Below are positions 29,905-30,867 of a stretch of DNA of 64,000 nt, piece after piece (positions within the stretch are counted from its first letter, which is position 1; each line of letters starts with the position of its first letter). A program made the position numbers and the translations under genes. The DNA lies in the IMG/VR virus record IMGVR_UViG_3300045988_134824, positions 72,744 through 136,743 of that record; one strand, written 5' to 3'. The notes beneath the pieces were generated by a model. The model was given only the letters and a program-made list of their open reading frames with translations, was not told the DNA's origin and ran no database searches. Origin of the DNA: a virus.

Positions 29905-30867
29905 ATGAGACAGATTACAGACACACATACAGGAGAAATTATCTCCGATACAGATTTAACATTAGAATACTTATTCGTTGGTGATTATGGCAAGGAAAAC
30001 AACATTAAGGCAGATTTTCTTGGGTATGATAAACGAATTGAAAAAGTTGAACATAAACCAGTTGATATTAGAGAAAAATTAGTTGTGACTGTTTCGTCGC
30101 AGAAAGGTTGCCCGATGCATTGCAATTTCTGTGATTGCCCTAAACTTGGATTTAAAGGAAATGCATCGTTGCCAGAGTTAATGATGGAGATCACTTCTGG
30201 AATTGCTTTATCAGGAATCAGACATGGAGAACGATTAAATGTACATTATGCAAGAATGGGAGAACCTACATTTAATCAAAATGTAATTGCTTCGGCTAAA
30301 CAGATTGCACATATGTTAGCAGATCCAGACAGTGATATACATTTCAACACATATCATCCAGTAATTTCTACAATGATGCCAAAGGCAAATAATAATTTAA
30401 AAGAATTTTTACATAAATGGGTTAAAACTGGATTCGAATATGGCGGAGAAGATGGCTTTGGTCTTCAGTTTTCTATCAATACTCTTAATGAAGAACAAAG
30501 AAATGAAATGTTTCGAGGATGTTCATTATCTTTAACAGAGATCGGAGGCATTATTGATTGGTTGCCAATGCCAAAGAAGCGTAAGTATACATTGAATTTT
30601 GCTGTTACATCCAAAAGTAATTTAGACGTAGATTTGATGAACAAGTATTTCGATAAGGAAAAATGCATTGTCAAGATTACTCCTATTCATGAAACAGTTG
30701 AAGCAGTTGACGAAGGATATGAGATTGTAACAGATTTTGACGTATATGAAAAATTTGAACAACCACTTGTAAAAGACGGTTGGGATGTAATTGTATTTGT
30801 TCCATCGAAAGAAGAAGACGCAGACAGAATTACATGTGGAAATTCATTAATTGCATTAGGGAATTAA
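29905..30867 (+). CDS. radical SAM domain enzyme
   Basis: CPMHCNFC (CxxxCxxC) cluster near N-terminus followed by Gly-rich MGEPTFN segment. Confidence 0.55.
   Translation: MRQITDTHTGEIISDTDLTLEYLFVGDYGKENNIKADFLGYDKRIEKVEHKPVDIREKLVVTVSSQKGCPMHCNFCDCPKLGFKGNASLPELMMEITSGIALSGIRHGERLNVHYARMGEPTFNQNVIASAKQIAHMLADPDSDIHFNTYHPVISTMMPKANNNLKEFLHKWVKTGFEYGGEDGFGLQFSINTLNEEQRNEMFRGCSLSLTEIGGIIDWLPMPKKRKYTLNFAVTSKSNLDVDLMNKYFDKEKCIVKITPIHETVEAVDEGYEIVTDFDVYEKFEQPLVKDGWDVIVFVPSKEEDADRITCGNSLIALGN

Follow-up and report, generated by a model that had tools for sequence, protein, structure and literature searches.

The RNA methylases RlmN and Cfr are the textbook case of a two-cysteine radical mechanism and, to our knowledge, the sole characterised class-A radical S-adenosylmethionine (SAM) methylases. 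In RlmN, the covalent intermediate between enzyme and RNA is resolved by C118, and a C118A mutant remains cross-linked to tRNA. Here, we describe a phage gene whose product is predicted to use the same scaffold without the resolving cysteine. The gene (hereafter referred to as rSAM; 29905..30867, + strand) lies in a 64,000-nucleotide stretch, the window, of IMG/VR virus record IMGVR_UViG_3300045988_134824 (positions 72,744 to 136,743 of that record). Coordinates without a locus name refer to the window, and what is reported as absent from the gene's context applies to these 64 kb. Judged by its sequence, the protein is RlmN-like, yet falls outside the RlmN/Cfr family as a variant on the class-A scaffold. 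It is a member of PHROG 24834, an abundant and uncharacterised family that varies a known kind of enzyme. Our preferred reading of its function, held tentatively and with a probability of about 40%, is that it supports tRNA wobble modification by processing a free base of the queuine type.

Exactly one ATG-started open reading frame (ORF) was found at 29905..30867, encoding the 320-residue protein described in a first-pass annotation of the window. A strong Shine–Dalgarno-like site, AAGGAAGGAG (29890..29899, +), read from the sequence, ends 5 nt before the ATG. The motif CPMHCNFC (residues 69–76; 30109..30132, +) has the CxxxCxxC pattern of a [4Fe-4S]/SAM cluster, with C69, C73 and C76 as its cysteines. 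The annotation had recognised this radical-SAM motif correctly but had placed it close to the N terminus, whereas it lies 68 residues in, within the first quarter of the protein. All three cysteines are unchanged in every homolog in alignments of 27 and 40 sequences. In the same two alignments, G119-E120-P121 (30259..30267, +), which aligns as the counterpart of the SAM-binding GMGEP motif of RlmN, is invariant or nearly so. A fourth cysteine, C311, is conserved in at least 90% of sequences in the 40-homolog alignment (A6), and no cysteine besides these four is conserved in the family.

The protein matches PHROG 24834 ('unknown function') with an E-value of 2.5e-80, and a large protein collection holds 6,904 homologous clusters at 90% identity. 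Its AlphaFold model is confident, with a predicted local distance difference test score (pLDDT) of 92.3 and a predicted TM-score (pTM) of 0.91. The Pfam Radical_SAM match stays below threshold (20.8 bits versus a gathering score of 29.5). Longer variants add no informative domains, and one of them is probably a chimera with a Pnkp-like N terminus. Because the cluster cysteines are invariant, the PHROG match is strong, the homologous clusters number in the thousands and the model is confident, we regard the product as a real radical-SAM enzyme. On sequence grounds, the ORF is a genuine radical-SAM gene, and its CxxxCxxC motif goes beyond a chance match.

Sequence and fold comparisons agree on the nearest characterised enzymes. 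The best NCBIfam matches were the RlmN and Cfr models (E-values from 5e-9 downward), and RlmN and Cfr were also the only significant sequence matches in the PDB. A profile of the family aligned with Escherichia coli RlmN in hhalign at 98.5% probability (E-value 2e-15, 250 columns), pairing residues 19–319 of rSAM with residues 103–363 of RlmN. When the model was compared with the PDB using Foldseek, the top ten matches were all RlmN-type (E-values 8e-11 to 3e-8, TM 0.56–0.65), and the remaining radical-SAM folds trailed them by about four orders of magnitude. RlmN cross-linked to tRNA (PDB 5HR6/5HR7) was among the top fold matches. The likeness to RlmN and Cfr (class A, COG0820) covers the partial TIM-barrel radical-SAM core over its whole length and includes the shared CxxxCxxC and GEP motifs. 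It extends to C311 (codon 30835..30837, +), which lies in a TCGN motif and aligns, by MAFFT and hhalign, with the methyl-carrier cysteine C355 of RlmN (ACGQ). The shared pattern is a C-terminal cysteine in CG(Q/N) at the position of RlmN C355 and Cfr C338.

Several features set the phage protein apart from both enzymes. It is only 15–19% identical to them, and it scores 35.5 bits against a cut-off of 290 with the RlmN model TIGR00048 and 21–24 bits against cut-offs of 468–550 with the Cfr models. The resolving cysteine, which precedes the cluster by seven residues (RlmN C118, Cfr C105), is replaced by T62 (codon 30088..30090, +), as placed by a HMMER alignment to 4pl1, a multiple sequence alignment and hhalign. 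Throughout the family this position holds Thr, Val, Ile or Asn, with Cys in 0 of 26 aligned members. The N-terminal RNA-binding domain is absent; the alignment starts at RlmN residue 103, and residues 1–26 of rSAM match only the β-extension just ahead of the RlmN core. The phage subfamily has its own insert at residues ~27–57. With a pI of 5.2 and a net charge of −14, rSAM is acidic; the catalytic core of RlmN, at pI 8.5, is basic. Some relatives of the phage protein are, moreover, fused to a transporter or to hydrolases. We keep rSAM outside the RlmN/Cfr family because it lacks the resolving cysteine and the N-terminal domain and scores far under the family cut-offs. What homology directly implies is a predicted [4Fe-4S]/SAM radical enzyme on an RlmN scaffold, with a C-terminal cysteine in an active-site loop and without a cis-resolving cysteine.

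The first-pass annotation had called the enzyme one of unknown specificity and worth classifying. That judgement was justified, and the classification led to an RlmN/Cfr-like affinity that it had not considered. None of the families it had put forward (QueE, pVip/viperin, NrdG and SPASM) proved relevant; hidden Markov model and fold comparisons both point to RlmN/Cfr. QueE models matched at E-values of 0.05–0.15 (~12–13 bits versus cut-offs of 260–300), and no Que or FolE gene was found in the window. Viperin and pVip gave no Pfam or NCBIfam match and did not appear in the top 50 PDB fold matches. No SPASM/twitch maturase model matched either, and there is no room for a SPASM auxiliary-cluster domain because the protein ends 9 residues past C311, the fourth conserved cysteine. 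As for an anaerobic activase paired with NrdD, against which the annotation had weighed its own view, the protein matched neither NrdG nor Fer4_12, and no NrdD was present among the scanned window ORFs. Among the larger + strand ORFs of the window, Pfam detected no NrdD/NrdG, QueC, QueD, QueE, FolE or tRNA-guanine transglycosylase (TGT), in line with the annotation's statement that the gene is not embedded in such a pathway. A search by the motifs DSGG[FYW] and CxCxxC found no TGT/DpdA-like ORF in the window or in 88 related loci, which is a weak negative.

The proposed substrate is suggested by cellular relatives. Rare bacterial proteins of the same subfamily, with 34–47% identity to the window protein or among themselves, share with the phage enzyme the N-terminal insert GDYxxxxxKADFLGY. 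They carry an N-terminal QueT domain (Pfam, 37–40 bits versus a gathering score of 33.7, passed in several) and, for the nucleosidase, either a PNP_UDP_1 domain at the C terminus or a separate gene of that family adjoining or nearby. Such QueT–rSAM(–PNP_UDP_1) fusions occur at L169:3423-5885 and L171:6001-8445 and in loci L170, L172, L175 and L176. We take QueT to be the energy-coupling factor (ECF) S-component for queuosine precursors. They may amount to a salvage route for a queuosine-type nucleoside in fused form. A described counterpart is the queK-qrtT-queL operon of Clostridioides difficile, in which queuine, freed from queuosine by a nucleosidase, is turned into preQ1 by the radical-SAM enzyme QueL (PMC11130926, PMC11477304, PMC12632869).

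A second, distant cellular subgroup (~26% identity; loci L089-L168) comes from metagenome-assembled genomes of Chloroflexota, Thermoplasmatota, Deltaproteobacteria, Zixibacteria and Heimdallarchaeota. Its operon comprises DUF3786, an isochorismatase, a TrxR-like flavoprotein, the rSAM homolog and a ParA/NUBPL-like P-loop protein (for example, L098:2687-6885 and L165:111-1891). In 66 of 73 loci, the gene immediately preceding the rSAM homolog is that of the flavoprotein, and some of the rSAM proteins are fused to isochorismatase. This operon is strongly conserved and apparently undescribed. Given its different make-up and the ~26% identity, we did not transfer function from this subgroup; we count its small-molecule-type operons (isochorismatase, TrxR-like flavoprotein) as support for a free-base substrate.

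Homology directly predicts that rSAM binds its cluster via C69, C73 and C76, cleaves SAM to a 5′-deoxyadenosyl radical and uses C311 in catalysis. On our proposal, its substrate would not be ribosomal RNA but a free base or nucleoside of the purine type, with a 7-deazapurine related to queuine or queuosine as the most probable one. The likely reaction, in which C311 would relay a hydrogen atom, would be a radical cleavage of queuine to preQ1, and rSAM would then be a functional analogue of the queuine lyase QueL, not necessarily a homologue. With this product, the host TGT would install or reinstall the modification at the wobble position of the tRNAs for Asp, Asn, His and Tyr. Repair at the wobble base by RlaP and a ligase would, we infer, leave a G34 in need of re-modification. 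A product that serves wobble modification would also explain why the gene travels with tRNA arrays and tRNA-repair genes. The proposal fits the absent RNA-binding domain and resolving cysteine, the acidic surface and the tRNA-centred neighbourhoods described below.

Several observations weigh against this proposal. No TGT/DpdA or Que gene was found in the window, in the 88 related loci or beside the fusion genes, and no preQ1 riboswitch was found in the window or next to six QueT–rSAM fusion genes. The fused PNP_UDP_1 domain best matches MTA/SAH nucleosidase (81 bits, below the cut-off of 169) and might merely clear the 5′-deoxyadenosine by-product. The conserved methyl-carrier cysteine argues for methyl transfer over lyase chemistry. 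Vibrio, Salmonella and Yersinia, hosts that make queuosine de novo, have phages with distant members of the family. Homology of the phage enzyme to QueL is doubtful because the IPR006638 signature of QueL is unexpected for RlmN-like proteins. Finally, the conserved order of rSAM, SPFH gene and tRNA-like RNA points more naturally to an RNA substrate.

In the window, this order comprises five elements, all on the + strand. The rSAM gene is followed by a 110-residue ORF (30888..31220; PHROG 20678, unknown function) ending in ...SCGGCI, and then by a gene for a flotillin-type SPFH/Band-7 membrane scaffold protein of 486 residues (31286..32746; Pfam Band_7, E-value 7.8e-24, and Flot). Next come a gene for an N-terminally anchored coiled-coil protein of 244 residues (32761..33495; PHROG 33389), which accompanies the flotillin-type SPFH, and a 139-nt tRNA-like RNA (33626..33764). 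The 110-residue ORF invariably follows the rSAM gene in the lineage of 99–100% identity; that its CGGC dithiol might supply a thiol in trans to the enzyme is pure speculation. The tRNA-like RNA begins 130 nt past the coiled-coil gene and scores 43.8 bits with Rfam RF00005 (gathering score 29). It has canonical acceptor, D and T arms and, instead of an anticodon arm, an AU-rich insert of ~93 nt; ARAGORN detects it only when introns are allowed. Directly upstream lies a long imperfect palindrome of ~72 nt (33549..33620), which could be an operon terminator or a processing or regulatory hairpin, and a terminator-like hairpin follows the element.

The order of rSAM, SPFH gene and tRNA-like RNA is conserved in two lineages, the window's included. 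In the other, with a 90%-identical rSAM, the directly following gene encodes a stomatin/prohibitin-type SPFH protein of 291 residues (Pfam E-value 3e-28), and an equivalent tRNA-like element comes after it (L026; 42.5 bits, 93-nt insert). The elements of the window and L026 differ in their acceptor stems (GGAAACA/UGUUUCC versus GGGGACA/UGUCCCC) and in their T stems. Because these changes affect both sides of the stems and keep the pairing, they support a real structured RNA. The inserts of both lineages contain ACCUCC. In loci L010 (SPFH gene at L010:11411-12286; tRNA-like element of 46.4 bits) and L015, rSAM is 99–100% identical to that of the window, and a 291-residue stomatin-type SPFH protein replaces the 486-residue SPFH and the 244-residue coiled-coil protein. 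Both loci retain the order of rSAM, 110-residue ORF, SPFH gene and tRNA-like RNA despite this exchange, which looks like a cassette swap within the module. A crAss-like Kehishuvirus has an SPFH gene one small ORF away from a 26%-identical rSAM homolog; BLASTP detected no similarity between its intervening ORF and that of the window, nor between the two SPFH proteins. In three further lineages, SPFH genes lie 3–8 kb from the rSAM gene.

For a wider view, we collected 80 loci from IMG/VR plus others, which dereplicated at 95% identity to 44 lineages, 41 of them phage. Clustering of neighbours within ±6 genes at 88 loci found no family common to more than three identity bins. The phage rSAM gene travels as a mobile single-gene cassette. 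The first-pass annotation's picture of a stand-alone phage radical-SAM gene in an accessory block holds. Within the available flanks, a tRNA, RNA-repair or SPFH neighbour is present in 17 of the 41 phage lineages and absent from 24. Six lineages have tRNA genes no more than 1 kb from the rSAM gene. The gene sits directly after a 22-tRNA array in L054 and directly before arrays in L083-L088, and a homolog is located inside a tRNA array in Stenotrophomonas phage BUCTxx99 (L002:4914-5873, WPH68542.1). GenBank labels the latter a 'prohibitin family protein', an apparent mis-annotation; the true prohibitin-like gene is 3.1 kb downstream. In the tRNA arrays of L084-L088, ARAGORN reports the suppressor-type anticodons CUA ('Pyl') and UUA ('Stop'), which hints at stop-codon reassignment in these phages.

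RNA-repair genes recur around the rSAM gene. RlaP, CCA-adding enzyme or T4-type RNA ligase 1 (Rnl1) is encoded within 10 kb in five lineages, and RlaP and CCA-adding enzyme genes directly adjoin the rSAM gene in prophages with an 84%-identical homolog. In four more lineages, RtcB-like ORFs recognised solely by motif are found within 10 kb, and the pooled neighbours include Thg1 and one Pfam match to RtcB. Phage RlaP, CCA-adding enzyme and Thg1 have been read as repair tools against host tRNA-cleaving toxins (PMC7824862; PMC12776372). A different association, with NAD-salvage genes (NAPRTase/NAMPT-type plus PRPP-synthetase-like), was seen in 4 of the 44 lineages. These genes stand directly upstream of distant rSAM homologs in Vibrio phage 496E54-1 (L180) and in the unrelated L173, and 6–9 kb away in the G84 prophages. 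The L173 block also holds PTH2, NUDIX, NAD kinase and T4 RNA ligase 1.

These neighbourhoods invite a reading in which rSAM acts on RNA, modifying tRNA or the adjoining tRNA-like RNA by RlmN-type chemistry; we consider this possible, if somewhat unlikely. SAM would methylate C311, and addition of a methylene radical would take place at an adenine such as A37 beside the anticodon. The enzyme would then be the 'protective methylase' of a phage RNA-repair/counter-ribotoxin module organised by the SPFH scaffold and the band-7-associated tRNA-like RNA. Lacking a cis-resolving cysteine, it would either need a trans thiol for release, such as the CGGC tail of the 110-residue ORF, or stay covalently attached. 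That tail and the disulfide-oxidoreductase-type flavoprotein encoded upstream in the distant cellular subgroup are suggestive only. The only characterised relatives are RNA methylases, tRNA-cross-linked RlmN is among the top fold matches and the methyl-carrier cysteine is conserved, all of which favours an RNA substrate. So do the gene order kept through the SPFH swap in L010/L015, the SPFH gene beside the 26%-identical crAss-like phage homolog, the tRNA, RNA-repair or SPFH neighbours of the 17 phage lineages and the proposal, in a preprint (bioRxiv 10.1101/312249), that Band-7 and b7a-tRNA form an RNA-repair cofactor pair. A macromolecular substrate is, however, hard to square with QueT-transporter and nucleosidase fusions in the same subfamily. 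The protein is also acidic and lacks an RNA-binding N-domain, no RNA-binding domain is recognisable in its longer variants, the resolving cysteine is missing family-wide, and 24 phage lineages have no such neighbour in their available flanks. Processing of a free queuine-type base is ranked first, slightly ahead of action on RNA, because a transporter–enzyme–nucleosidase fusion is hard to explain for an RNA-modifying enzyme. A more specific claim, which we regard as unlikely, is that rSAM, the SPFH scaffold and the insert-bearing tRNA-like RNA constitute one unrecognised phage module. In it, an RlmN-derived enzyme whose resolving cysteine has been lost naturally would modify tRNA or the tRNA-like RNA, or capture either of them covalently. 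If true, phages would have a new radical-based means of protecting, repairing or decoying tRNAs when anticodon nucleases of the host attack, and the 'band-7-associated tRNA', which has never been validated, would become accessible to experiment for the first time.

The substrate could instead be a small molecule unrelated to queuosine, which seems to us improbable, though worth weighing. Examples would be C-methylation of a free adenine- or pyridine-type nucleobase or nucleoside, possibly tied to NAD+-reconstitution or counter-defence genes. The NAD-salvage genes next to the homologs of Vibrio phage 496E54-1 and L173, and at 6–9 kb in the G84 prophages, would fit such a role, as would the linkage or fusion of the cellular subgroup to isochorismatase-family hydrolases. 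An FMN reductase and an MBL-fold protein among other immediate neighbours of the rSAM gene, and the anti-defence genes in which the window is rich (ArdA, two Tad2-like), point the same way. Yet NAD salvage is found in only 4 of the 44 lineages and may just be a matter of both kinds of gene residing in accessory islands. The fused transporter is of the QueT type and not a niacin-type S-component, and the data yield no candidate substrate. That the protein is a degenerate, non-catalytic relic of RlmN is very improbable. One of the two mechanistic cysteines and the RlmN N-terminal domain are indeed missing, but the cluster cysteines, GEP and C311 are (near-)invariant down to 26% identity, the predicted fold is confident and complete, the family is very large and the ribosome-binding site is strong.

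The window itself has ~33% GC, with nearly all genes on the + strand. At the DNA level, the 12 kb around the rSAM gene matched no GenBank phage; the best GenBank phage protein match to rSAM is in Bacteroides phage Versailles (47% identity), and 84%-identity homologs sit in prophages on contigs of up to ~600 kb. By Pfam, the accessory region around the gene is rich in counter-defence genes. They include an ArdA anti-restriction protein (1779..2327, +; E-value 5e-30) and two Tad2-like (anti-Thoeris) proteins, probably at 40625..40936 and 40945..41244 (+), coordinates that were assigned by reading the sequences. An RlaP-family RNA-repair nucleotidyltransferase is encoded 13 kb downstream of rSAM (43844..44764, +; Pfam E-value 4.6e-21), and no RtcB was found in the window. 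Further + strand genes encode a 535-residue TnpB/Cas12f-like protein (37761..39368; Pfam OrfB_IS605 and a Cas12f1-like TNB domain), two nucleoside 2-deoxyribosyltransferase-like ORFs (41241..41654 and 45890..46363), a weakly matching DHH/DHHA1 phosphoesterase (41661..42614) and a PcfJ-like protein (46525..47559). The region also contains a PemK toxin, antirepressors, an integrase and a sigma factor.

Our literature searches on phage RlmN-like or Cfr-like enzymes found no paper describing such a family. In databases, the homologs are labelled 'radical SAM', 'hypothetical' or, automatically, '23S rRNA (adenine2503-C2)-methyltransferase', apart from the one 'prohibitin family protein'. A clade of more than 6,900 clusters that keeps the methyl-carrier cysteine and never the resolving one implies either another ending to the reaction or other chemistry on the same scaffold. 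Should these enzymes process queuine, phages would interfere with the competition for queuosine, a micronutrient, and with the state of tRNA modification. Should they work on RNA, with the SPFH protein and tRNA-like RNA as partners, they would be a new enzyme type in phage counter-defence against tRNA-cleaving toxins.

Beyond RlmN and Cfr, three described systems bear comparison with this locus. In a viral structure library, the top matches of the rSAM model (E-values 1.9e-13 and 1.5e-10) were a phage protein labelled 'COG0820' and, from Pseudomonas phage 201phi2-1, a radical-SAM protein that carries no annotation. Such uncharacterised COG0820-like phage proteins (201phi2-1 B3FJU2; Versailles WAK79139) are the best viral fold matches and, being labelled only 'radical SAM domain protein' or 'hypothetical', bring no functional information.

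For the neighbourhood of the gene, the nearest described systems are the Band-7/b7a-tRNA modules. The preprint presents Band-7 and a 'band-7-associated tRNA' as a predicted, never validated RNA-repair cofactor pair next to RtcB (bioRxiv 10.1101/312249, citing Burroughs and Aravind 2016). As far as the preprint describes it, the RNA at 33626..33764 resembles the predicted 'band-7-associated tRNA': an SPFH gene precedes a tRNA-like RNA in the window, the same pairing recurs in L026 and L010, and related phages have RtcB-like, RlaP and CCA-adding genes nearby. By the same description, the window differs in having no RtcB and in the ~93-nt insert at the site of the anticodon arm. We know of no radical-SAM partner described for these modules.

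For the preferred reading, the processing of a free queuine-type base, the system to compare is C. difficile QueL (UniProt Q186P0) and its operon. QueL is filed under InterPro IPR006638, not expected for RlmN-like proteins, a comparison made by catalogue entry only, and a large NCBI cluster such as C. difficile would be expected to yield did not appear among the rSAM homologs. The operons differ as well, the nucleosidase partner being PNP_UDP_1 where QueK is IUNH-type, and with no preQ1 riboswitch found. Like QueL, rSAM is a radical-SAM enzyme, and its proposed function would likewise be related to tRNA. The likeness to queK-qrtT-queL, drawn from operon make-up and not from the sequence of QueL, is that the cellular rSAM proteins of the same subfamily stand in an analogous triad with QueT and a nucleosidase.

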